Below, piece by piece: positions 208 to 10,134 of a DNA stretch of 10,134 nucleotides. Position numbers and translations under genes: made by a program. Numbering within the stretch: position 1 is the first letter of the stretch; each line of letters opens with the position of its first letter. The notes beneath the pieces were generated by a model. The model did no database searches. It saw only the letters and a program-made list of their open reading frames with translations, and was not told the DNA's origin. The stretch lies in UHGV virus genome UHGV-1424210. One strand, given 5' to 3'. The DNA is from a virus.

Positions 208-417
208 TTACACTGCCTTACCTGAATTAATGCGATCCCGGCTTTTAACCCATTCCATAACCTCGGACAGCAGCCACCCTACAGAACGACCGCCCAGATT
301 AAGACGTGACGGAAAGCTCCCTTTTTTCTCCAGTTCGTAGCGTGTAGTGCGACACACTCCAGTTAACTTACGACATTCATCCTCACGGATTACGCGATCT
401 TCATTTATTTCACGCAT
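208..417 (-). CDS. alpA: AlpA-family (prophage CP4-57 regulatory protein / excisionase-like) helix-turn-helix regulator, about 69 aa
   Basis: Translation MREINEDRVIREDECRKLTGVCRTTRYELEKKGSFPSRLNLGGRSVGWLLSEVMEWV fits the AlpA/Xis-like HTH pattern. Start set at the ATG at 417-415. The ORF-track start at 504 is a GTG directly abutting AAGAGG, with no usable spacing, and would add 29 non-conserved residues. Confidence 0.75.
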   Translation of the reverse strand: MREINEDRVIREDECRKLTGVCRTTRYELEKKGSFPSRLNLGGRSVGWLLSEVMEWVKSRDRINSGKAV

Positions 418-758
418 ACAAAAACCTACATAAAAATTACGTATATAAACTTTTCTCTTAGCTGTAGATATATGAGATCGGATATTACTTAGATTCTTTT
501 TCACCTCTTAAATTAAAAACACAACCATGCTAAAGGCTTTGTTCGCTAAGGTTCGTAGAAGCTCGTTAGTGTTTAAAATCGTGTCACGAGTTTTTAAGCG
601 ACGCAACAAAAAATGTCGTCATTTGGCATGACACCTTAATTACCTCATTAAAAACAAATAGATAAACCATCAGGTGTTGGAACAATCAAGAAACAGAGAA
701 TAAGAACTCAGAAGAAGACATTTCAATTTTTTTCGATAGTTGACACATATAAAGAGAA

Positions 759-836: not shown

Positions 837-2075
837 TCAAGAATTTTGGGGGTAAATTCGCGGGGTCATAACAACGATTTTTTCATCATTGTTCTGGAGA
901 AGCTCGAGACGGTCTACCCATAGATTAAGAGCATCACGTTTTGCATCAAGGTAGCGGGAGTGGTTATAGACTCGTTGCATCCCTGGCATCTGGTGGGCTG
1001 TAAGCTGCTCGACAATATGCGGATCCACGCCTAAATCGTTCAGCATGGTTGTAAATGTGTGCCGGATATCGTGTAACGTCCAGGGGGCTTGATTAATTCG
1101 TCTGTGCGCTGTTCTTCCGTACTCTGCTACCGAAGATTGTCCTTTCAGTTCACCAAGCAATAAGCCTGTGTGTCTGTTCTGCTCCACCAGTTGCGTGACG
1201 AACGGCAAAATGCTTTCCGGTATTGGCCTGAATATGGCGACCTTCGTTTTGCTGTGCTCCTTCGGTACTGTCCAGAGCATTTCTTTAAAATCCCACTCCT
1301 GCACCTCAGAGCGCCTTAGCTCAGTGGTACGGCATCCAAAAACAATCAGGAGGCGAATTAGGGCGCTGTAGTATGGCGGGAATATTTTGTCATCCAGGGC
1401 GCGGAGTAATTCCCCAAGCTCCTTATTTGTTAGTACGCGCTCGCTCACTTCTGCTTTTTTTCCCACATCACCGACAACCATATCATCAAGAACGTTGCTG
1501 ATTGCGTATCGTCGTTTTCGGCAGTACTTAAGCGCCTGTTTGCATACCTGTAGCAAAAATCCGGCAGATACAGGGCTTCGCTTTGCCATCTGGTCAAAAC
1601 ATGCCAACCAGTGCCGTAGCTCGCATTTTTCCAACGGCAAAGCGCCAATCTGGCTGATTATGTGTTTATTGATCCGGCTTTTCAGTGATTCGTAGTCAGT
1701 GCGCTTTTCCTTTGCATACGATTCAAGCCAGTAAGTGAGCGCTTCCTTAACTGTCACGGGGGCTAACGCATCCTGTACAGCACGATTAAGCTCATAGCGC
1801 GGATTTTTCCCCTCAGCCAGCCAGGCGCGACACTGTGCTGCTTTTTCCCTGGCTGCTTTCAGGCTCAGATCGGGATAATTGCCCAGTCTCAGACGTTCCG
1901 GTGATACCTGCCTACCAGTTCCGGCCCTGTAAGTGAAATACCAGGTTAACAGGCCGCTGGTGGAATGTCTTACGCTAAGATTGCCACCGTCATTAAAAAA
2001 GGCGTTTTTTGTGGTTGGTGATCCGCTTAATTTTCGTAAAAGAGTGTCGCTAAGTCTATGAATTGCGCTGCTCAT
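837..2075 (-). CDS. int: Site-specific tyrosine recombinase (P4-type integrase), 412 aa
   Basis: Full-length ORF starting with ATG at 2075-2073. C-terminal catalytic-domain signatures: conserved Arg in LIVFGCRTTELRR, His-x-x-Arg box WTLHDIRHTFTT, and a C-terminal Tyr region QRVYNHSRYLD. Overall resemblance to P4/CP4-57-type integrases. Confidence 0.9.
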   Translation of the reverse strand: MSSAIHRLSDTLLRKLSGSPTTKNAFFNDGGNLSVRHSTSGLLTWYFTYRAGTGRQVSPERLRLGNYPDLSLKAAREKAAQCRAWLAEGKNPRYELNRAVQDALAPVTVKEALTYWLESYAKEKRTDYESLKSRINKHIISQIGALPLEKCELRHWLACFDQMAKRSPVSAGFLLQVCKQALKYCRKRRYAISNVLDDMVVGDVGKKAEVSERVLTNKELGELLRALDDKIFPPYYSALIRLLIVFGCRTTELRRSEVQEWDFKEMLWTVPKEHSKTKVAIFRPIPESILPFVTQLVEQNRHTGLLLGELKGQSSVAEYGRTAHRRINQAPWTLHDIRHTFTTMLNDLGVDPHIVEQLTAHQMPGMQRVYNHSRYLDAKRDALNLWVDRLELLQNNDEKIVVMTPRIYPQNS

Positions 2076-2098: not shown

Positions 2099-2355
2099 AT
2101 TAACTACACCATTGACTACACCGTGCATCGTACAAGGGCAAACCGTGACGAACAAGAGCGAACAAGGAAAACAAAATTTTCCTTTATAATCATAGCGATG
2201 AATGCACACAAAACACTACCACGAACACCCGCGAACACTAGATGATAAATAACTATCATTTATATCATTTAGTTAATTAGTCTTTATTTTTCATTATGTT
2301 GCAAATAACAAGCCCGTCAAAAACAGTGATATTAACTACACCATTAACTACACCG
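2099..2355. repeat. Pair of 25-bp direct repeats, ATTAACTACACCATT(G/A)ACTACACCG, at 2099-2123 and 2331-2355
   Basis: The two copies differ at one position and are 232 bp apart. Each is itself a tandem duplication of ATT(A/G)ACTACACC. They flank the putative int promoter. Confidence 0.7.
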
Positions 2356-2386
2356 CTTCACGAACAATATCGAACAACCGCGAACA
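2149..2386. repeat. Seven CGAACA hexamers in helically phased (10-bp) groups upstream of int
   Basis: CGAACA at 2149 and 2159; at 2222 and 2232; and at 2361, 2371 and 2381, with exact 10-bp spacing within each group. Candidate integrase arm-type or AlpA/RDF binding sites. Confidence 0.6.
2293..2320 (-). promoter_or_regulatory. Candidate sigma70 promoter directed toward int
   Basis: On the minus strand: -35 TTGACG (reverse complement of 2315-2320), 16-bp spacer, -10 CATAAT (reverse complement of 2293-2298). Predicted leader of about 210 nt to the int ATG at 2075. Lies between the repeat groups. Confidence 0.35.
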
Positions 2387-2642
2387 AAGATCAACACGCT
2401 TTAATCATTATCATTTTCCGGCTATCCGTCATGAAGCTGGTGGATGATCTGCGTGGTGATTTCCACCATTCAGAGCAGGGGCGGTCATCATGACCATGCC
2501 ATAACAAAAACCCCATATTCGTGGTTTTTCTGTGTCGGGGCTATTCTGCTGTTGCCGTGCTGGTGGATATTCTCCGGTATGCGGCTCCCCATATCGGCAT
2601 CAGGCCCACCAGCGTGAAGCGTTTTTCATTTTTCGCGGGTAT

Positions 2643-2702
2643 AAAAAATCGATGGGGCGGGCAGTCCTGAAGACGTCAGGGTACAGAGATTTGACCCGCC
2701 CC
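2643..2702 (-). terminator. Intrinsic terminator (minus strand): compound GC stem followed by U6
   Basis: GGGGCGGG (2654-2661) pairs with CCCGCCCC (2695-2702), enclosing an inner hairpin CCTGA-agacg-TCAGG (2666-2680). On the minus-strand RNA this is followed by AUCGAUUUUUUAU (plus-strand A-run 2643-2648). Confidence 0.5.
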
Positions 2703-2716
2703 TCCCTGTGCATGAG

Positions 2717-2752
2717 CACAATAAGTAACCGAAGGCGGAATTCCGCCCTCGG
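2717..2752 (-). terminator. Intrinsic terminator (minus strand): 10-bp stem around GGCGGAATTCCGCC plus U-rich tail
   Basis: Minus-strand RNA CCGAGGGCGG-AAUU-CCGCCUUCGG (one G-U pair) followed by UUACUUAUUGUG. First terminator reached after the packaging operon. Confidence 0.5.
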
Positions 2753-2784
2753 TACTTACATATGAGAAACGATATTTCTTCCAC

Positions 2785-2925
2785 CGATACCCTTTATTTG
2801 GGTATCGCGAGTAAGCCCCAAAATCTGGGTGTTACTCTTACTACCCAAACTACGGGTAGTTTCCGTAGTTTCATGGTCGAGTTGCAAATCTGCAACTCAC
2901 CCACCAGCCAACGCAATTTTGCGTT
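2785..2925. other. Cluster of four hairpins / inverted repeats in the untranslated region downstream of the packaging genes
   Basis: H1 CGATACCC-tttattt-GGGTATCG (2785-2807); H2 alternative stems ACTACCC/GGGTAGT (2840-2860) or AAACTACGG/CCGTAGTTT (2847-2871); H3 GAGTTGC-aaatct-GCAACTC (2879-2898); H4 AACGCA-attt-TGCGTT (2910-2925). Confidence 0.45.
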
Positions 2926-2943
2926 ATCGGGAATATCAGCAAG

Positions 2944-3324
2944 TTACCGCCGCAGTCGTTCCGGCTTCTTCCACTGGTAAGTACTTTTCGCGCTCTCCCT
3001 CCGTTGTTGAGAACGGCGACGGTATGCCAGCAACTCAAGGACTCTGGTTCGTATGTTGCGCATATCCACGCCGTTAAGCTCAATACCATCACGGCGCATC
3101 ACCTCAGCAACAACACGCGCGTAATTTTCGGCTATCACGCTGTCCGGCTGCGTGGCCTCCTGTTCGCCAGCCTGCTGGCTGATTCCGGTAATACTGCGGA
3201 TTATCCCGAGCGCTTCGGTCTCGGTCATGGTCATGGTCATGGCCTCCATAGTGATGGCGGGTCCTCCTTGTGGGGTGCCCTGCCACGGGGCGGGAGCATC
3301 GCGGAAAAAGGCTAGTTTTTGCAT
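2944..3324 (-). CDS. Hypothetical protein downstream of terS (126 aa from ATG 3324; more likely about 101 aa from ATG 3249)
   Basis: Same strand as the operon. A strong SD, AAGGAGGA, lies 13 nt upstream of the internal ATG at 3249; the ATG at 3324 has no SD. Contains an in-frame (ATGACC)3 repeat encoding MTMTMT. No recognisable family. Confidence 0.45.
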   Translation of the reverse strand: MQKLAFFRDAPAPWQGTPQGGPAITMEAMTMTMTETEALGIIRSITGISQQAGEQEATQPDSVIAENYARVVAEVMRRDGIELNGVDMRNIRTRVLELLAYRRRSQQRRESAKSTYQWKKPERLRR

Positions 3325-3485
3325 TTTTATTCGTCATCACCACCAATGCAATATATTGATATGACTTGATGTTTTATTTTTCGGTGTCGATTTCGATTGT
3401 TTTTTGTTCATCACTGACGCATAACGCCCACCAGCGCAACGCTGAAAGCCAGTCAGTAAACTGGCTTCGGTCATTGTGCACTACG

Positions 3486-4028
3486 TTACTTGTCTTTATC
3501 CGGCTGAAACTTATCAGGCACATTTCCGGTAGTTTCCATCAGATAATCGGACAGCATTCGCGGGATGTTTTCATCAAGTTTTGTGCATGCGTTACAGGCT
3601 CTGACAACTTCTTTTTTCAGGCCATCCAGCATGACGGGGGTCATCTGTGGGAAGCTCCTTTGCATAGTAAGCGGGAGGCTGTCCATGATTGATGAAATCT
3701 GACTCGCCAGTTTTGAAAGCGCGTACATGCAAAACTCTGTATCAATCACGTCACCGCGATCGCGCTCGTTTTTAAGTTCCTGCGCCTCCGCCTGTGCTGT
3801 CAGTAATCTGATCCTGACTCGTAAGAGTTCATCATCATCAATCTCGCCTTTGTCGTTTGTAAGCTGGCTAATTGCATTGTTAACCCTATTGTCTATCACG
3901 CTGGCAACATCATAAAACGCCTCACGGCCTTTACGTTCAACGGGAGTCACTCCCCACTTGTCGAATGCTGTAGCACTTACCCGGCAGCTTTGCGCCATGG
4001 TTTTTTTGTTCATCAGGTGCGATTTCAT
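3486..4028 (-). CDS. Terminase small subunit, lambda Nu1-like
   Basis: Full-length collinear similarity to lambda Nu1 as recalled: RLLTAQAEAQELKNERDRGDVIDTEFCMYALSKLASQISSIMDSLPLTMQRSFP… versus lambda RLTRAQADAQELKNARDSAEVVETAFCTFVLSRIAGEIASILDGLPLSVQRRFP…; C-terminus ENIPRMLSDYLMETTG versus ELIPGLLSEYIEQSG. The ORF-track start at 4031 is TTG; ATG candidates are 4028 and 4013 (MNKK…, matching lambda MEVNKK…). Confidence 0.85.
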   Translation of the reverse strand: MKSHLMNKKTMAQSCRVSATAFDKWGVTPVERKGREAFYDVASVIDNRVNNAISQLTNDKGEIDDDELLRVRIRLLTAQAEAQELKNERDRGDVIDTEFCMYALSKLASQISSIMDSLPLTMQRSFPQMTPVMLDGLKKEVVRACNACTKLDENIPRMLSDYLMETTGNVPDKFQPDKDK

Positions 4029-4129
4029 CAATATCCCAACTTGGTCAAGGTTTCAGGTTGGTGTGTTGGTGTTATCTTTCCCTTTTTATTCATGGAGATA
4101 GAGCAAACAACAAAACCACCACCACCACC

Positions 4130-4215
4130 CTGAAAAAGCTCATAAATAGCGAAAAACCGCAAGGTCGCCGCCCCGTAGCCTACCGGATCGCCGGAAAGGA
4201 CCCGCCAGCCAGAAC
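4130..4215 (-). other. Lambda-type cos site (cosQ/cosN-like); cosN cohesive-end sequence at 4162-4173
   Basis: Minus strand reads GGGCGGCGACCT at 4173-4162, identical to the lambda 12-nt cohesive end as recalled. Both flanks also resemble lambda: CGGGTCCTTTCCGGCGATCCGGTAGGCTACG upstream and TGCGGTTTTTCGCTATTTATGA downstream. About 135 bp upstream of the terS start, as in lambda. Confidence 0.8.
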
Positions 4216-4229
4216 GGGACCTAATTTCA

Positions 4230-4613
4230 TCAACCAATCAACTTATAGCGACCATCCCGTGCATTGCGACGTACACGCTCAATCTTGAGGCATAGCGCCG
4301 CATCTGGCTTTTTTGGGACAGGTACGCGGCAATATTCAGAAGCTCGAGGAATATTGTTTATCCAGTCGATCACTTCACTTAAATACCAGGCCTTACGCCC
4401 TTCCGTAACCTGTACGCGCTCGGGGAACTCTCCGCGAGCCTCAAGGTTTAGCAATGTGCGACGGCTAAGGGTAGTAAGTTCCATCACCTGATTCATATCA
4501 ACAAGGCGTTCACTTAAACGCATTTTGTCAGCAATAGCCTTTAATTCCTCTACTGCTGGATCCGGATACATCATTTCGGCAATTGGCTTAAGGTCATTGT
4601 AATGATTCTGCAT
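4230..4613 (-). CDS. AlpA-family HTH protein with an approximately 45-aa N-terminal extension (127 aa)
   Basis: C-terminal part VMELTTLSRRTLLNLEARGEFPERVQVTEGRKAWYLSEVIDWI matches the AlpA/excisionase-like HTH pattern. ATG at 4613 is preceded by SD AAGGGGGA at 5-nt spacing. Sits between the D-like gene and cos. Confidence 0.75.
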   Translation of the reverse strand: MQNHYNDLKPIAEMMYPDPAVEELKAIADKMRLSERLVDMNQVMELTTLSRRTLLNLEARGEFPERVQVTEGRKAWYLSEVIDWINNIPRASEYCRVPVPKKPDAALCLKIERVRRNARDGRYKLIG

Positions 4614-4624
4614 TGTATCCCCCT

Positions 4625-4966
4625 TTACACACGAGCCAGCGGCTGAACAGAAATACCTGAGCCAACAAACGCGGCAACCTTTGCCGACAGTTCTTTTACA
4701 GACTCAGGCCAGTTCAGAGCATCAACATTTAAAACACCTGTCTTATAAACCTGTGCCTGTGTTTTTTTCGCTGTGTCGATTTGTACAGCGGAAACATAAA
4801 CCGCTTTGCCTGCGCTCGTTCCATCCCATACCACTAGCGCACCAGTTGCATCTTCCTGCATCAGTGGCGTAAACGCAGGTATTACCCCTTTATTGGCTGA
4901 AAATATCCCCAGCGTAGTAACCAGTGCTTCAGTGCCAGACATGAGTTCAGTGTAATGAGTAGCCAT
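4625..4966 (-). CDS. Head decoration protein, lambda gpD-like (113 aa)
   Basis: Similar length to lambda D (110 aa), with shared motifs THY, TPLM, WDGT, KTG, WPE and a C-terminal AF-G-x-IS. SD AAGGGGGAG upstream of the ATG at 4966. Starts 10 bp after the capsid gene stop. Confidence 0.8.
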   Translation of the reverse strand: MATHYTELMSGTEALVTTLGIFSANKGVIPAFTPLMQEDATGALVVWDGTSAGKAVYVSAVQIDTAKKTQAQVYKTGVLNVDALNWPESVKELSAKVAAFVGSGISVQPLARV

Positions 4967-4975
4967 TGCTCCCCC

Positions 4976-6022
4976 TTAGCCAATGCGAACGGTAACAAAA
5001 CGATTGATGCGGGCCGGTATTGGCTGTGGTGCTGAATGTGTCTGCACATATTCAATAGCCGGATCACCAGGCACAATATAGTTTTTCGGTGCAAGTTCGG
5101 CTTTAGTCAGCCCCATCCGGATTAGCTCCGGATCCTGAATACCGCCATAAGCGACAATCCCCTGAAGAGCCGTATTGCCAAGCACCATCAAATCAGGATC
5201 AAGGAAATATTTTTCAGTTCCGTCCTCGTCGGTATAACGCCCGCTGTAAACAACAATCGCAACATCGCCCATATACCCTTTAAAACTCACCGAATCACCA
5301 AGGTCTTTAAGGGCCGTTTCCAGTTCGGAATTAGAACCACGACGAGTATCCAGAGCCTCTTTTATCGCCCTGAATGAACGGTATTTCTTCCATACATTAC
5401 CGCCCATAATGATAATATTAGTGACGCCCTCACTAAATTCTGCGTAGCTCTCAATATCATCATTTGGATCAAAAGCTTCTTTATCCTTACCTGACCACTC
5501 AGCACCGCCAGACTGAGTGATGATATTTTGTGGTTTAATATTCCAGTCCAGCTCATAACGTTCAATACCATCGCCCTCAATGATATTTTTCCCCGTTGTG
5601 ATTGCCTGAACGGCAAGCCATTCAATACGTGCACGAATAGCTTTAGCCTGATTTACAATCGCCTGTTTAACTTTAATATTACGCGCTCCAAAAGCATTGT
5701 ATTGCTCAGGTGATACACCAGCAGGGCGCACAGCTAACTTATTTGGATCAATGCTGCTTTTCGGTTTCATATAGCCAGGGCGAATTGTTTTTGATTCGTA
5801 TCCCTCATCTCGTGAAACTTTACTGCCCACCATAGGAGAGCAAAACGCCGCGATCGGGATATTTGGATCGTCGATCGTATCAAGAATAATGTCTCTCGAT
5901 TCAAACATTACCGAGCGAGTGAAAAACAAACTGGTAAACAACGCATTTAATTTTTTTTGCACATCTTCAGCATTAGCCACCTGCACAAGCTGTGTAGGCG
6001 AATATAAGTCAACCATACTCAT
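4976..6022 (-). CDS. Major capsid protein, lambda gpE-like (about 348 aa)
   Basis: Collinear similarity to lambda gpE as recalled, e.g. NIITQSGGAEWSGKDKEAFDPNDDIESYA and ALDTRRGSNSELETALKDLGDSVSFKGYMGDVAIVVYSGRY versus lambda NITQSGGTEWSKRDKSTYDPTDDIEAYA and KLDTRRGSNSELETAVKDLGKAVSYKGMYGDVAIVVYSGQY. Start set by homology at MSMVDLY (ATG 6022); the alternative ATG at 6016 has better SD spacing. The ORF-track start at 6103 is TTG. Confidence 0.9.
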   Translation of the reverse strand: MSMVDLYSPTQLVQVANAEDVQKKLNALFTSLFFTRSVMFESRDIILDTIDDPNIPIAAFCSPMVGSKVSRDEGYESKTIRPGYMKPKSSIDPNKLAVRPAGVSPEQYNAFGARNIKVKQAIVNQAKAIRARIEWLAVQAITTGKNIIEGDGIERYELDWNIKPQNIITQSGGAEWSGKDKEAFDPNDDIESYAEFSEGVTNIIIMGGNVWKKYRSFRAIKEALDTRRGSNSELETALKDLGDSVSFKGYMGDVAIVVYSGRYTDEDGTEKYFLDPDLMVLGNTALQGIVAYGGIQDPELIRMGLTKAELAPKNYIVPGDPAIEYVQTHSAPQPIPARINRFVTVRIG

Positions 6023-6187
6023 CCTCTTTACATTCATTACAAATAATTGTGAATATATTCTATTACCGATGTCTGCTATGCGAATACATGCAACCAAGTG
6101 CAATGTTGTATAAAATATGCTGTGACAACTTCAGTGCTGATAATTCGTGTTAATGTATTTACTTCCTTTGGTCGGGATTTATGTAGC

Positions 6188-6216
6188 ATGCCGGAAAATC
6201 TATTTTTTTCCGGCAT
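6188..6216. other. 11-bp-stem hairpin between the SSB-like and capsid genes (terminator-like)
   Basis: ATGCCGGAAAA (6188-6198) / TTTTCCGGCAT (6206-6216) with a 7-nt loop. A T-rich tract follows on the plus strand only, so its role in the minus-strand operon is uncertain. Confidence 0.35.
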
Positions 6217-6233
6217 CTTTTTGTTTGCAGAAT

Positions 6234-6656
6234 TTAAAACGGTATATTATCGCCGTACGGATCATCATTCCCCGACTGTTGTTTTGCCCTGTTCAGTGCG
6301 TCAGTGGCCTGCCCCTGCTGGCCTTTTTTGCCGCCCGGTCGCGCTGTTCGCGCACTGATCACGCTGTCTGCGATAACCTGCCAGCCCTGCCGCGTTTCGC
6401 CGTTCTGGCCTGTCCACTGGCTTACCTGCATGTTACCCGCCACGCTCACCAGTTCGCCTTTGTGGTGTTTTGCCAGTGCGTCGGCCTGTCTGCCAAACGC
6501 CAGGACGGATAACCACATCATCGCCGTTCCGTCATCTGCCTGGCTGCACGGAAGGGGGACCGCCATACTAGCCATCGCCATTTGTGTACCCTTGCTGGTG
6601 GTCTTTAACTGCGGGTCAGCCACCAGCCGTCCGTAAGCCGCTATCTGTGCTGTCAT
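6234..6656 (-). CDS. Single-stranded DNA-binding protein (SSB)-like, 140 aa
   Basis: OB-fold-like core WLSVLAFGRQADALAKHHKGELVSVAGNMQVSQWTGQNGETRQGWQVIADSV resembles E. coli SSB [51 protein letters not shown]. Gly/Gln-rich linker and acidic C-terminal tip DDPYGDNIPF (compare SSB DFDDDIPF). SD GGAGAG upstream; the start ATG overlaps the upstream stop (ATGA). Confidence 0.65.
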   Translation of the reverse strand: MTAQIAAYGRLVADPQLKTTSKGTQMAMASMAVPLPCSQADDGTAMMWLSVLAFGRQADALAKHHKGELVSVAGNMQVSQWTGQNGETRQGWQVIADSVISARTARPGGKKGQQGQATDALNRAKQQSGNDDPYGDNIPF

Positions 6657-6895
6657 GCTGTCTGCTCTCCGGTTTTAACGTTGATGGTTGTCACCTGTTC
6701 CGCTTCGGCAATCTCCCGTTCTGTCAGCGTGGCAAAGTTTGCAGCTGCCGTTGTCATGAATGCGCTAATCAGTTCGGGATGTGCTTTCGCATATCCTTCC
6801 CCGGCGTTGCGGTCGATGATTTTTATCGCCACTCTCAGCCAGTGCTCTGTAAGGTCAATAGCGCGGTAGTGTGGTTGTTTGCGGTTTTCCTTCAT
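6653..6895 (-). CDS. Hypothetical protein, 80 aa, translationally coupled to the SSB-like gene
   Basis: ATG-initiated ORF whose stop overlaps the SSB-like start (ATGA). First gene after the iteron region. No recognisable motif. Confidence 0.5.
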   Translation of the reverse strand: MKENRKQPHYRAIDLTEHWLRVAIKIIDRNAGEGYAKAHPELISAFMTTAAANFATLTEREIAEAEQVTTINVKTGEQTA

Positions 6896-6935
6896 AGTTC
6901 AGATCTCAATTTTTCGTATATATATACAAAACAGT

Positions 6936-7250
6936 GCGGGTTATGCGGGTTAGCGGGTTATCTTCGCTTGCTAAGTATTTTTTATTCCTTAATATCAATA
7001 CATTACAAAATTAACTGTTTACTGTTTAGCCGTGGCGTAACCCGCAAAATGCTCAAAATAACCCGCAAACGGGGTTTTTTCTGCGGGTTACGCGTGGCTG
7101 TTTGCTGTCACTTCCTGTTATTCATCTGCGGGTTATAATCGCACTTTTGCGGGTTATAACTGCCGTTTTGCGGGTTACGTGCGGGTTATTGATTTCCTTT
7201 TTATTCATGCAGTTAATGCACTTATACACAGAGTAACCCACATAACCCGC
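6936..7250. repeat. Iteron array (9-bp GCGGGTTAY) flanking an AT-rich stretch: candidate replication origin
   Basis: Direct copies at 6936-6944, 6945-6953, 6954-6962, 7083-7091, 7128-7136, 7149-7157, 7170-7178 and 7181-7189. Inverted copies (TAACCCGC) at 7036-7044, 7058-7066 and 7242-7250, plus a degenerate one near 7233-7240. AT-rich region 6962-7030. Immediately downstream of the Rep stop at 7274. Confidence 0.7.
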
Positions 7251-7273
7251 AACTTTTCACCTCACACAGGGGG

Positions 7274-9397
7274 TTAATCTTCTGCCTCAGGCTGGAACAT
7301 CAGCACGTAAAAAACATGCTGCTTCCCCCCAATTTTGCCGAGAGCCTTTTTCTTGTAACGGCGATCGTTACCCGCTTCCAGCATTCCGGCAGCACTCAAC
7401 GCGCGGGCAAAGTGGGACGGGTTAAATCCCTGTGCGATCTCCCCCTCAAACACATGAGGAAACGTGTAAAAACGGAACTCATCATCTTCATTTCTGATAC
7501 TCCCCTTTCTGTATCCGGCAAGGTCTTTAATCGGTAAATCACGTTCATCACTGTTTGGGTAAGGAAGGTATCGACTGAACCCGAACGACGACAAAAACGC
7601 CTCAGCCTGTTCAACCATCTGTTTAAATTCCCTGTTACCCGTGCCGAACTCCTTCACCCAGGCATTAAAGTTATGCTGTATTGCGTCCCGGCATTCCTGC
7701 GCGGCCCAGCCAGTTACATGACCGGAAAGCACAAGCGCGGCCTCCAGTATGGCGAAACGCTCACCCACGCGGTGGACTTGCTCGCCGTAGCTCTCCGGTA
7801 TCAGGTTGCGCCACCGTTCGCGGCATTCCCTTACCGTATCCTTTGCCTCCTGCTGGTGGCCTGCCAGCCATTTAACCCACTCACGACCCGCTGCCCCGTG
7901 ATTTTCTGTCCAGGCATCCTTTAACGCGTCTGCGTGCGCCTTTCCGGTGCTGTATTCGTGAAAGTGCGTGGCTTTTTCCATCGGAACGTTAAGCAGGCGG
8001 ACAAGCTGCCCCGCTTTGACTTTTATCCCCTCCGTTTTGAGGAATGTCTCAACGTCCATTTCTCCGGTGCTGATTGCCACCGTGCGCCAGTGTTTTATCT
8101 CCCGGTTGCCGCCGTCCTTCGCCCCCTGTAATTTCCCGGAACCGTTAAACAACGTATAGGCTGACGTGGACACCTCCCGCGCGTTTCCGGCCTGGCCTAT
8201 TTCATCCAGGGGTAACAGCCCGTCGTTGTGCGCCTCTGCCTCGTTAGCGATACCTAACGCTGTGCCGTACCAGGTCAGCCGTTGTGCGTCCGGCTCTCCC
8301 CATAAACTTGATGCGATGTTCTGCGTGGTGGTTTTCCCTGCCGATGACTGTTCGAAAAGATGTACCCCGAAGCCGTCAGCACCAACAAGGCCAATCAAAG
8401 GTGCTGCCAGTGACGTGGCAACACCCAGCATCATGGACGGATTGCCACCAGCCAGCCGCGCCACGCAGTCGCGCCAGCCCTCCGACGTACCCGCAACCGA
8501 ATAGCCATTAACAGTGGCACTTTTTCCGGTAAACAGGATCGGTTTTTCAGAATCACCAATGATTGAGCCGTCCGGCATGATATACGCGCCAAAATGCCAG
8601 CCCGTTGTTGTGCTTAGCTGCCATTCCTCATGGCTTCCGCTTAACTGCATCCAGTCAGCCAGGATAGCCCTGTATTTGCCGTTTGTTGTCACGTTCAGCC
8701 CGTGATCTTTAAGCAACCGCCAGCCGTCACGGTCGCCAATGCCACCACACGGGATCGCCATTGTGATGACTTCATGGTTTGCTAATTTTTTCCAGCGCAT
8801 CACGCGGTAATGCTCTTTACCGATCGTCCCCGTTCCCAGTAGTTCAAGCGGAGAACATAACCACGTCTCAGGCCGGATAATTTCGCCTGACTGCTTATCC
8901 ACTTTGGGCGTTACCCAGAAAACACCATCGACGCGACTTTCAACGCGGGGCTTTAATTCATCATCCTGATAGCATGGCTCTTTTTTCTTTACAGGCAGTT
9001 CAACTACCTTTTTCTTTTCCGCCTGCTCTGCCCGTTCACGTTCCAGATATTCGCGCCAGTTCTCCCGTTTCTGGCTGTGCATTCCTTCAGGGTAATAATC
9101 AGCATCCCTGACACCTGCCGCTGCCAGTTTCTGCCCGATGGTATTAACAAGCCCCGGACGCAATAACCCCGCCTGGTAGAGACGCACGCGATAGCGTCCG
9201 TCCGGTACGATTTGCAGGTTGTCCAGTTCGGCAAGTTGTTGCTCTCCAAGCCAGACAGGTGGCACGTTATCGCCAGCCAGTCGCCCGTCCTGTTCCTGCC
9301 ACTGCTTCGCATGTGCCCACGCATCACTACCCGCAAAAATGATGACTTCCGTCATTTTGTCACGCGGCTGGTGTTTTAAATTTGGCGCTTTTTTCAT
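7274..9397 (-). CDS. Replication initiator (primase/helicase-like ATPase; resembles DUF927-type proteins of CP4-57/PICI-like islands), about 707 aa
   Basis: Long ORF with P-loop-like motif FEQSSAGKTT and Walker-B-like LLPLDEIG. Adjacent iteron origin. Start set at ATG 9397 (SD GGAGAGAG, ATGA overlap with the upstream ORF stop); the ORF-track start at 9412 is GTG. Family assignment is from memory, not from a search. Confidence 0.8.
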   Translation of the reverse strand: MKKAPNLKHQPRDKMTEVIIFAGSDAWAHAKQWQEQDGRLAGDNVPPVWLGEQQLAELDNLQIVPDGRYRVRLYQAGLLRPGLVNTIGQKLAAAGVRDADYYPEGMHSQKRENWREYLERERAEQAEKKKVVELPVKKKEPCYQDDELKPRVESRVDGVFWVTPKVDKQSGEIIRPETWLCSPLELLGTGTIGKEHYRVMRWKKLANHEVITMAIPCGGIGDRDGWRLLKDHGLNVTTNGKYRAILADWMQLSGSHEEWQLSTTTGWHFGAYIMPDGSIIGDSEKPILFTGKSATVNGYSVAGTSEGWRDCVARLAGGNPSMMLGVATSLAAPLIGLVGADGFGVHLFEQSSAGKTTTQNIASSLWGEPDAQRLTWYGTALGIANEAEAHNDGLLPLDEIGQAGNAREVSTSAYTLFNGSGKLQGAKDGGNREIKHWRTVAISTGEMDVETFLKTEGIKVKAGQLVRLLNVPMEKATHFHEYSTGKAHADALKDAWTENHGAAGREWVKWLAGHQQEAKDTVRECRERWRNLIPESYGEQVHRVGERFAILEAALVLSGHVTGWAAQECRDAIQHNFNAWVKEFGTGNREFKQMVEQAEAFLSSFGFSRYLPYPNSDERDLPIKDLAGYRKGSIRNEDDEFRFYTFPHVFEGEIAQGFNPSHFARALSAAGMLEAGNDRRYKKKALGKIGGKQHVFYVLMFQPEAED

Positions 9398-9693
9398 TTC
9401 TGCTCTCTCCACGCGGCAATCATGTTTTTCAGTTCCTGTAGTTTTTTATCCACATCCACACGTGACACATGGTTATTTCTGGAAGTCGGGATTTCCCGCC
9501 GGAATCTGCAAATAAAGATCTCCACGTTCAGCGAACTAAGAAATGAATAGCCATCACGGATAAAATACACACGGTCAAACATCAGTTCTTTTACCGTTAC
9601 TCTGTTACCGTTCTTATCCAGATAAATAGCGCCGGGGATAATTTGGGGGTGTGCATAACCGCTGGCAGTCAAGCCAGATAAATACGTTCTCAT
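9394..9693 (-). CDS. Hypothetical protein, 99 aa, translationally coupled to rep
   Basis: ATG at 9693 with an upstream GGGGAT; stop overlaps the rep ATG. No recognisable motif. Confidence 0.55.
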   Translation of the reverse strand: MRTYLSGLTASGYAHPQIIPGAIYLDKNGNRVTVKELMFDRVYFIRDGYSFLSSLNVEIFICRFRREIPTSRNNHVSRVDVDKKLQELKNMIAAWREQK

Positions 9694-9699
9694 GATTAT

Positions 9700-10020
9700 T
9701 TATCCCCGATTTGAATCAGTATTCGCTTTCTTTATAGCATTTAATGCATCTGTGGCATTTTCAATGGTGCACCGTAACGAAATATCAAAATGTCCAAGCA
9801 TTGCCAGTAACAAACCGATATTACCCATATCAATGCGCATGGCCTTTTCGTCATAGTCCTCATTTTCTGACGCATGCCACATCAGGCTACCAATTGACGC
9901 AACAGCCATTGATATATTGTCAGTAGCCCCATCCGCAGCGGAATAAACCTTTTTAGCAATATCATGCTCACAGTTAAAATGCGGATTAATCAGGTACTGG
10001 TAATTTGACATATCAGGCAT
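9700..10020 (-). CDS. Hypothetical protein, 106 aa
   Basis: ATG-initiated ORF. Its start overlaps the stop of the upstream partial ORF by 8 nt. Six bp separate its stop from the next start. Confidence 0.55.
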   Translation of the reverse strand: MPDMSNYQYLINPHFNCEHDIAKKVYSAADGATDNISMAVASIGSLMWHASENEDYDEKAMRIDMGNIGLLLAMLGHFDISLRCTIENATDALNAIKKANTDSNRG

Positions 10021-10134
10021 GGCACACCCCCTGACGAATACGGGCAGCGAATACCATCACGCAGCCAGCCGGGGATTGCAGGCGTGCTTCCTGTTCGCTG
10101 GTGGCCTCAATGGTAATCACGCGCGGTTGTGCCG
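10013..10134 (-). CDS. Partial CDS (C-terminal 39 codons) entering from the right edge
   Basis: Open minus-strand frame from the window edge to TGA at 10015-10013 (…VITIEATSEQEARLQSPAGCVMVFAARIRQGVCHA), overlapping the next gene start; indicates an operon of at least four genes. Confidence 0.4.
   Translation of the reverse strand, partial: AQPRVITIEATSEQEARLQSPAGCVMVFAARIRQGVCHA

Follow-up and report, generated by a model that had tools for sequence, protein, structure and literature searches.

Positions 6936–7250 of the window (the whole 10,134-bp stretch of DNA analysed here) are very probably the vegetative replication origin of an E. coli PICI, bound by the island's Rep protein through twelve iterons. 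The observations made here are of the repeats, their architecture, their conservation and their covariation with the C-terminus of Rep. As an origin, the region is a DUF927-Rep, GCGGGTTAY allele of an origin type that is already known. What would go beyond expectation is a family-wide, fixed 12-site scaffold on which, as judged from sequence, the iterons and the wing of Rep change together.

The element that carries the array is a Gram-negative E. coli PICI of the cspD-clpS att family. It has an integrase gene, alpA, genes that all run in one direction, a PICI att site, and cosN together with terS. In a 99.9%-identical E. coli record it sits between clpS and cspD as an island of about 10.7 kb. 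All long open reading frames of the window lie on the minus strand, and they include the following, identified by Pfam except for the 80-aa gene.

208–504, minus strand: second AlpA
837–2075, minus strand: tyrosine integrase
3486–4031, minus strand: Nu1-like small terminase (TerS)
4230–4613, minus strand: AlpA-like protein
4625–4966, minus strand: lambda D-type decoration protein
4976–6103, minus strand: lambda E-type major capsid protein
6234–6656, minus strand: SSB
6653–6895, minus strand: 80-aa gene that immediately follows the origin and is itself followed by SSB; 91% identical to its EcCICFT073 counterpart
7274–9412, minus strand: DUF927 protein (Rep)

An exact lambda cosN, GGGCGGCGACCT, is present at 4162–4173 on the minus strand, between the AlpA-like gene and the Nu1-like terS and just upstream of the latter, and points to a lambda-like cos helper for packaging. 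Relative to the integrated island, the window is circularly permuted: 2242–10134 is the attR-side part, 1–2263 is the integrase side, and the integrase and terS ends are joined over a 22-bp overlap that contains ATAACTATCAT (att core 2249–2259). ATAACTATCAT is the reverse complement of the cspD-clpS att core given for EcCIIHE3034 and EcCI18098 in Table S1 of PMC6092414, and the att core of the island, ATGATAGTTAT, is that of the same two elements. Because this permutation is joined across the att core, the window represents the excised or circular form of the PICI or a concatemer junction. Between the window ends, 596 bp of the island are missing (L001 15286–15881, including a YlcI/YnfO gene). 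The origin region is present in 306 of 5,426 complete E. coli genomes.

GCGGGTTAY has 10 exact matches in the window, all of them inside 6936–7250, against a chance expectation of 0.18 (mean of dinucleotide-preserving shuffles, none of 200 of which reached 10 matches). Allowing one mismatch added two copies within the array, GCGGGTTAG at 6945–6953 on the plus strand and GTGGGTTAC at 7233–7241 on the minus strand; the remaining one-mismatch matches were scattered singletons at close to the chance rate. The array thus totals 12 copies with a common GGGTTA core, eight on the plus strand (starts at 6936, 6945, 6953, 7083, 7128, 7149, 7170 and 7181) and four on the minus strand (starts at 7037, 7058, 7233 and 7242), in keeping with the sequence-only reading, which had counted at least eleven copies of a 9-bp unit in both orientations. 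Neighbouring iterons of the same orientation are 8–9, 11 or 21 bp apart, start to start. Over the whole island, with the 596 bp that the window lacks, we found no second GCGGGTTAY cluster. The parts of the array, listed from the rep stop outwards, are as follows.

7233–7250, minus strand: iteron pair nearest the rep stop, GTGGGTTAC and GCGGGTTAT, with a 9-bp period
7190–7232, no strand: AT-rich spacer 1, 43 bp, 70% AT, a candidate melting region
7128–7189, plus strand: four iterons, inverted relative to the proximal pair and spaced by 21, 21 and 11 bp, their positions kept in a seven-genus alignment
7083–7091, plus strand: single iteron between the two half-origins (from the repeat search and the seven-genus alignment)
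7037–7066, minus strand: iteron pair bounding spacer 2, spaced by 21 bp
6962–7036, no strand: AT-rich spacer 2, 75 bp, 69% AT, containing an IHF-consensus match and the block TCTTCGCTTGCTAA
6936–6961, plus strand: distal triplet of abutting iterons, with a period of 8–9 bp

The array has two similar halves. Each of its two AT-rich spacers, in a window that is 52% AT as a whole, lies between oppositely oriented sets of iterons, two against four around spacer 1 and two against three around spacer 2. The earlier description of iterons flanking AT-rich DNA was right in this respect, but the AT-rich DNA is two spacers and not the one stretch that had been described. The same reading had placed the array directly 3′ of rep, which is true on the minus strand: since the genes lie on that strand, the array starts 23 bp after the rep stop (stop codon at 7274–7276, nearest iteron ending at 7250).

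Several other sequences in and around the array were recorded. An IHF-consensus match, TATCAATACATTA, lies at 6993–7005 on the plus strand within spacer 2, and its TTGA core alone is semi-conserved among relatives; the window holds two IHF-consensus matches against 0.46 expected. The block TCTTCGCTTGCTAA (6962–6975) abuts the distal triplet; within the xxGGGTTA class it is kept in six of seven genera, in a spacer that has otherwise diverged, and a hairpin of this block with the neighbouring iteron was not conserved. A box, TTTTGTATATATATACGAAAAA on the rep strand (6910–6933), adjoins the distal triplet and is kept in relatives of any iteron class, so that it is not what the specificity domain of Rep reads; it could serve for unwinding or priming or as part of a promoter. 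DnaA boxes form no cluster in the array, and the closest site to one there, at 7222, has one mismatch. A perfect DnaA box, TTATCCACA, occurs at 9446–9454 on the plus strand, within the DUF4222 gene just upstream of rep, and DnaA-box matches with up to two mismatches number 46 in the window (shuffles: mean 31, largest 44). Four terminator-like hairpins were all on the non-coding plus strand, and the one examined was not conserved among relatives. No Rfam family was detected in the window at gathering thresholds, and annotated phage records gave only three distant partial matches and no annotated origin.

The gene next to the array encodes the predicted initiator, of which the relevant segments are as follows.

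7274–9397, minus strand: rep, a 707-aa DUF927 replication initiator-helicase (Pfam DUF927, E=3.7e-47; RefSeq annotation of a 100%-identical record)
7277–7681, minus strand: C-terminal 135 aa of Rep, a predicted winged-helix origin-binding domain (from a structural model)

The mechanical open reading frame begins at a GTG at 9412 (712 aa), and the annotated ATG at 9397 overlaps the stop of the upstream DUF4222 gene. Rep has the P-loop SSAGKTT, and a profile built from 15 Rep homologues matches the SaPIbov1 replication initiator-helicase (PDB 8tch, E=4.8e-16, residues 210–605) and SCCmec Cch (5dgk, E=6.5e-5). Foldseek returned 5dgk as the top match to a full-length AF2 model of Rep built from 15 close homologues, a model that is poor overall (pLDDT 44.7) and usable for the N-terminal domain only. 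A separate model of the C-terminal domain, built from 25 sequences, is a winged helix closest to 8tch, a TcpK-oriT complex and Cch; the Pfam match of Rep to the Cch HTH domain is below threshold. The last ~50 residues (7277–7426) carry the iteron-specificity signature AGMLEAGNDRRYKKKALGKIGGKQHVFYVL.

We also considered whether the Rep C-terminus is homologous to the origin-binding domain of P4 alpha, and rejected this on finding no HMM or profile-profile similarity: the C-terminal Rep profile had no sequence match in the PDB, and hhalign to the P4 alpha C-terminus gave a probability of 1.3%. The profile of alpha-like Reps, by comparison, does match the P4 origin-binding domain (1ka8). DUF927 is the only Pfam hit on the window's Rep, which by this measure does not count as an alpha-type primase-helicase.

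The N-terminal ~150 aa of Rep (residues 1–140 are encoded at 8978–9397, minus strand) are about 50% identical to the N-terminus of the EcCICFT073 Pri-Rep, which is P4-alpha-like and otherwise unrelated. Pfam does not recognise this segment, which AF2 models with confidence as an alpha/beta fold and for which Foldseek gave only weak hints to DnaG/Toprim. In other genera, the N-terminus of many relatives is different and longer, in proteins of ~900–950 aa.

The 15-homologue Rep profile led to 80 loci from as many Enterobacterales species, one of which had no stop in the available DNA. The other 79 were reduced to 71 by setting aside three with too short a stretch past the stop and five that lacked a strong repeat in the first 450 bp; the analysed set consists of these 71, the window and two CFT073-type control islands. 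DUF927 loci including the window number 72, and some counts, such as the '73 loci' used for spacer AT content, also include locus L050. Each of these 72 has a strongly repeated 8-mer in the first 450 bp beyond the rep stop; counted over the 79 related loci with at least 300 bp of DNA past that stop, which span many Enterobacterales genera, the number is 73. Most arrays have 12 copies, about 20 loci have six, and throughout the family the spacings between iterons of the same orientation are dominated by 9, 21 and 11 bp, or about one or two helical turns. The layouts are nearly superimposable on that of the window, as the iteron offsets after the rep stop (in bp, with orientation) illustrate for one relative.

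Window: 23+ 32+ 85- 96- 117- 138- 183- 207+ 228+ 313- 321- 330-
Winslowiella: 26+ 35+ 87- 98- 119- 140- 158- 181+ 202+ 277- 285- 294-

All 73 loci counted have an AT-rich rep-proximal spacer, with a mean AT fraction of 0.79 and a median length of 45 bp; of 43 relatives, 11 have a GC-rich distal spacer. In L021, L026, L030, L035, L036, L038, L046, L051–L053 and L057 the second spacer has given way to a conserved GC-rich segment, CCAGnnnTGGCGCGGnCTG. About 20 loci (L019, L020, L023, L028, L031, L032, L039, L041 and others) carry the rep-proximal half only, as three plus three inverted copies, which suggests that this half is the minimal origin.

The sequence of the iterons, in contrast to their layout, differs between loci. 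There are at least 17 variants, among them GTTGGTTCA, GTCGGTTCA, GTTGTCTCA, GTTGTCCCA, CTTATCCCA, GTGGGTTA, ACGGGTTA, CGTGGTTCA, GTTGTACCA and AGTGTGTCA. Alignment of origins of the xxGGGTTA class from seven genera showed that the invariant columns are essentially the iteron cores and that the spacers have diverged. A variable iteron position (GCGGGTTA, GTGGGTTA or ACGGGTTA) is switched in all 12 copies of a locus together, and such concerted change appears to be the mark of an array of sites that evolves together with a single protein binding it.

To compare iterons with Rep, 70 Reps were aligned and classed by iteron. The excess of within-class over between-class identity is 0.32–0.38 in the last ~50 residues of Rep and ~0.1 along most of the protein, and class-specific motifs lie in this terminal segment between a conserved AGML and a conserved YVL. 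In the C-terminal model, the class-specific residues would map to the wing, in its loop and its first strand. The distance between iterons correlates much more strongly with the distance between C-termini (Spearman 0.78) than with that between cores (0.39); once the core is controlled for, the partial Mantel correlation of iterons with the C-terminus is 0.74, a value reached in 0 of 999 label permutations, and that of iterons with the core given the C-terminus is -0.13. Prediction of the iteron from the Rep C-terminus alone in three further proteins gave the expected sequence in two (CGTGGTTCA for P0111 and GTGGGTTA for P0039) and a one-base variant in the third. The latter, P0010, is an E. 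coli Rep that is 80% identical overall to that of the window but has a swapped C-terminus; its iterons are GTTGTCCCA, which differs by one base from the predicted CTTGTCCCA, and GCGGGTTA is absent. For P0101, which had no exact prediction, we found a new iteron variant, GTTGCCTCA. Iteron class thus appears, from these alignments, to follow the last ~50 residues of Rep. What the covariation shows is that the wing and the iterons are inherited and change together, not that they bind physically.

Experimental precedents come from two groups of islands. In Gram-negative PICIs, according to the text of PMC6092414, the origin is the region immediately 3′ of pri-rep, in which sets of iterons flank an AT-rich region, and a plasmid carrying rep and ori of EcCICFT073 was maintained only with both intact (Fillol-Salom et al., 2018, PMC6092414), showing Rep- and ori-dependent replication for this relative. 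A later survey likewise has the PICI ori downstream of pri, and DUF927 is one of the Pfams that it lists for PICI 'primases'. The window has the corresponding arrangement, with an array 3′ of rep (as in 73 relatives) and inverted sets around spacers of 70% and 69% AT. The suggestion that rep followed by ori is a layout typical of phage-inducible islands was therefore borne out by the PICI gene set and by EcCICFT073, which has the same layout, and the proposal of an iteron origin is supported by this precedent together with the covariation of the repeats with the C-terminal domain of Rep.

EcCICFT073 resembles the window in the order DUF4222, rep, origin, small gene, ssb, capsid and decoration, and its small downstream gene is 91% identical to the 80-aa open reading frame of the window. 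In contrast, its Pri-Rep resembles the window's Rep over the N-terminal ~150 residues only and has a P4-alpha-like 'DNA primase family' helicase core in place of DUF927, and its iterons, GGTAGAYA/CTGTCTACC, are present in ~10 copies in a different arrangement. With a neighbouring gene so similar and with the Rep core, the Rep C-terminus and the iterons all different, the iterons therefore follow the Rep core and C-terminus and not the neighbours. None of eight named E. coli PICIs examined has a DUF927 Rep; those of CFT073, IHE3034, ATCC 25922, RM13514, Ecol_224, 042, 11128 and D i14 are all of other types. Among the others, RepA-type helicases are paired with AAAAGTGGGGAG, and P4-alpha-like Reps with ACTGTTCACC, which contains the P4 type-1 repeat TGTTCACC. 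The users of ACTGTTCACC are EcCI224 and EcCIRM13514 (L090 6713–7300 and L087 8055–8545; P4 is L091), and the EcCI224 Pri-Rep has 50.7% identity with P4 alpha in the part of alpha that covers the helicase and origin binding. GCGGGTTAY does not occur in the text of the supplement of PMC6092414, although Fig. 2a may draw it.

The second precedent is that of the SaPIs. Experiments on SaPI Reps showed that a C-terminal winged helix binds and recognises the iterons. These Reps are described as helicases that load themselves and need no ATP to bind and melt the origin; their origins have 6–12 iterons immediately downstream of rep, with an AT-rich centre and at least two iterons in opposite directions on each side (PMC9371898). 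The window fits this description in having an initiator homologous to SaPI Rep and Cch and 12 iterons directly after rep, and would fit it also in the predicted C-terminal winged helix. It differs from the Rep/ori systems of SaPIbov1, SaPI1 and SaPI5 and from SCCmec Cch in its Gram-negative host and its different N-terminal domain, in iterons of 8–9 bp with a GGGTTA core (5–6 bp in SaPIs), and in having two AT-rich spacers and a fixed 12-site scaffold. It also differs from iteron plasmids (RepE, pi and similar) in that the initiator is itself the helicase and the array has no DnaA-box cluster.

From these relationships we infer how Rep would bind, melt and load itself at this locus. After induction, the island's own Rep, a presumed self-loading hexameric helicase of the SaPI/Cch type with a DUF927 core, would bind the twelve GCGGGTTAY iterons through its C-terminal winged-helix domain. 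Since the iterons lie about one to two helical turns apart and in opposite orientations beside the AT-rich spacers, Rep oligomers would assemble on both sides; they would then melt the AT-rich DNA, most likely at the rep-proximal spacer (7190–7232), and self-load to serve as the replicative helicase, with the unwound strands coated by the SSB whose gene lies just downstream.

P4 offers a reason to consider a different role for the array. Like the island in the window, P4 is an enterobacterial satellite with a two-half iteron array, in both orientations, immediately 3′ of an initiator-helicase gene. That array, crr, is located 46 bp beyond the stop of alpha and consists of two direct repeats of 120 bp that hold 10 type-1 repeats; the ori is annotated at a distance of 4.5 kb, so position alone is no proof of initiation here. 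By analogy, the window's array, which adjoins a rep stop and also has two similar halves, could be a crr-like cis-acting enhancer of replication or a copy-control (handcuffing) region that is bound by Rep, with synthesis starting elsewhere. We consider this unlikely. P4 has TGTTCACC repeats in two cis regions, ori and crr, whereas the island has GCGGGTTAY in a single cluster and no second cluster of the motif; about 20 relatives have the rep-proximal half and nothing else within 450 bp; the window's Rep is of the SaPI/Cch type and not alpha-like, with no profile similarity to 1KA8; and in EcCICFT073 the region after rep, together with rep, sufficed for plasmid maintenance.

The array also fills the intergenic gap before the next gene (start at 6895), and the class-independent box at 6910–6933 lies between the last triplet and that start. 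The repeats might then be operators for the downstream ssb, capsid and packaging genes, bound by Rep or by another regulator, as their sole or an additional role; iteron-binding plasmid Rep proteins commonly also regulate promoters. We found no sigma-70-like promoter between 6800 and 7350 on either strand, however, and iteron class tracks the Rep C-terminus rather than the downstream gene, a gene that islands with unrelated iterons share at 91% identity. Twelve sites in inverted sets around AT-rich spacers are, moreover, the architecture of a SaPI origin, and an operator function seems very unlikely, although the repeats may have a regulatory role as a second function. That the repeats are TerS-binding sites of a cos or pac packaging signal, as the Nu1-like small terminase of the island and the repeated Nu1-binding sites of lambda cosB might suggest, is so improbable that we rejected it: the exact lambda cosN at 4162–4173 lies elsewhere, directly upstream of terS and 2.8 kb from the array, and in relatives the array is always at the rep stop and covaries in sequence with the Rep C-terminus.

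Identification of the region as a PICI origin would by itself matter little, as it predicts that the island drives its own replication after induction, which is expected of a PICI. What is gained comes from the comparison: at least 17 iteron sequences are carried on one rigid architecture, each matched to a short segment of the wing, and an initiator of Gram-negative PICIs is linked by sequence and fold to the self-loading helicases of staphylococcal SaPIs and SCCmec. These comparisons may be of use in predicting which satellites are able to share a cell, in studying how initiator-origin specificity evolves, and in building orthogonal replicons.

We tentatively extend this to a broader proposal, to which we give slightly less than an even chance, that the DUF927-Rep origins of enterobacterial satellites make up a large, naturally occurring collection of orthogonal Rep-origin pairs on the fixed 12-site scaffold, in which a few residues of the wing set specificity and a swap of the last ~50 codons with concerted replacement of all iterons re-sets it. 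Candidate pairs of wing motif and iteron would be YKKKAL with xCGGGTTA, YQRKS with GTTGGTTCA, YQG(R/K) with GTTGTCTCA and WQIRT with TTGTCCCA. If this is true, such pairs could let co-resident satellites avoid cross-initiation and incompatibility, and would provide a protein-DNA recognition code that can be read, as well as a toolbox of compatible replicons.
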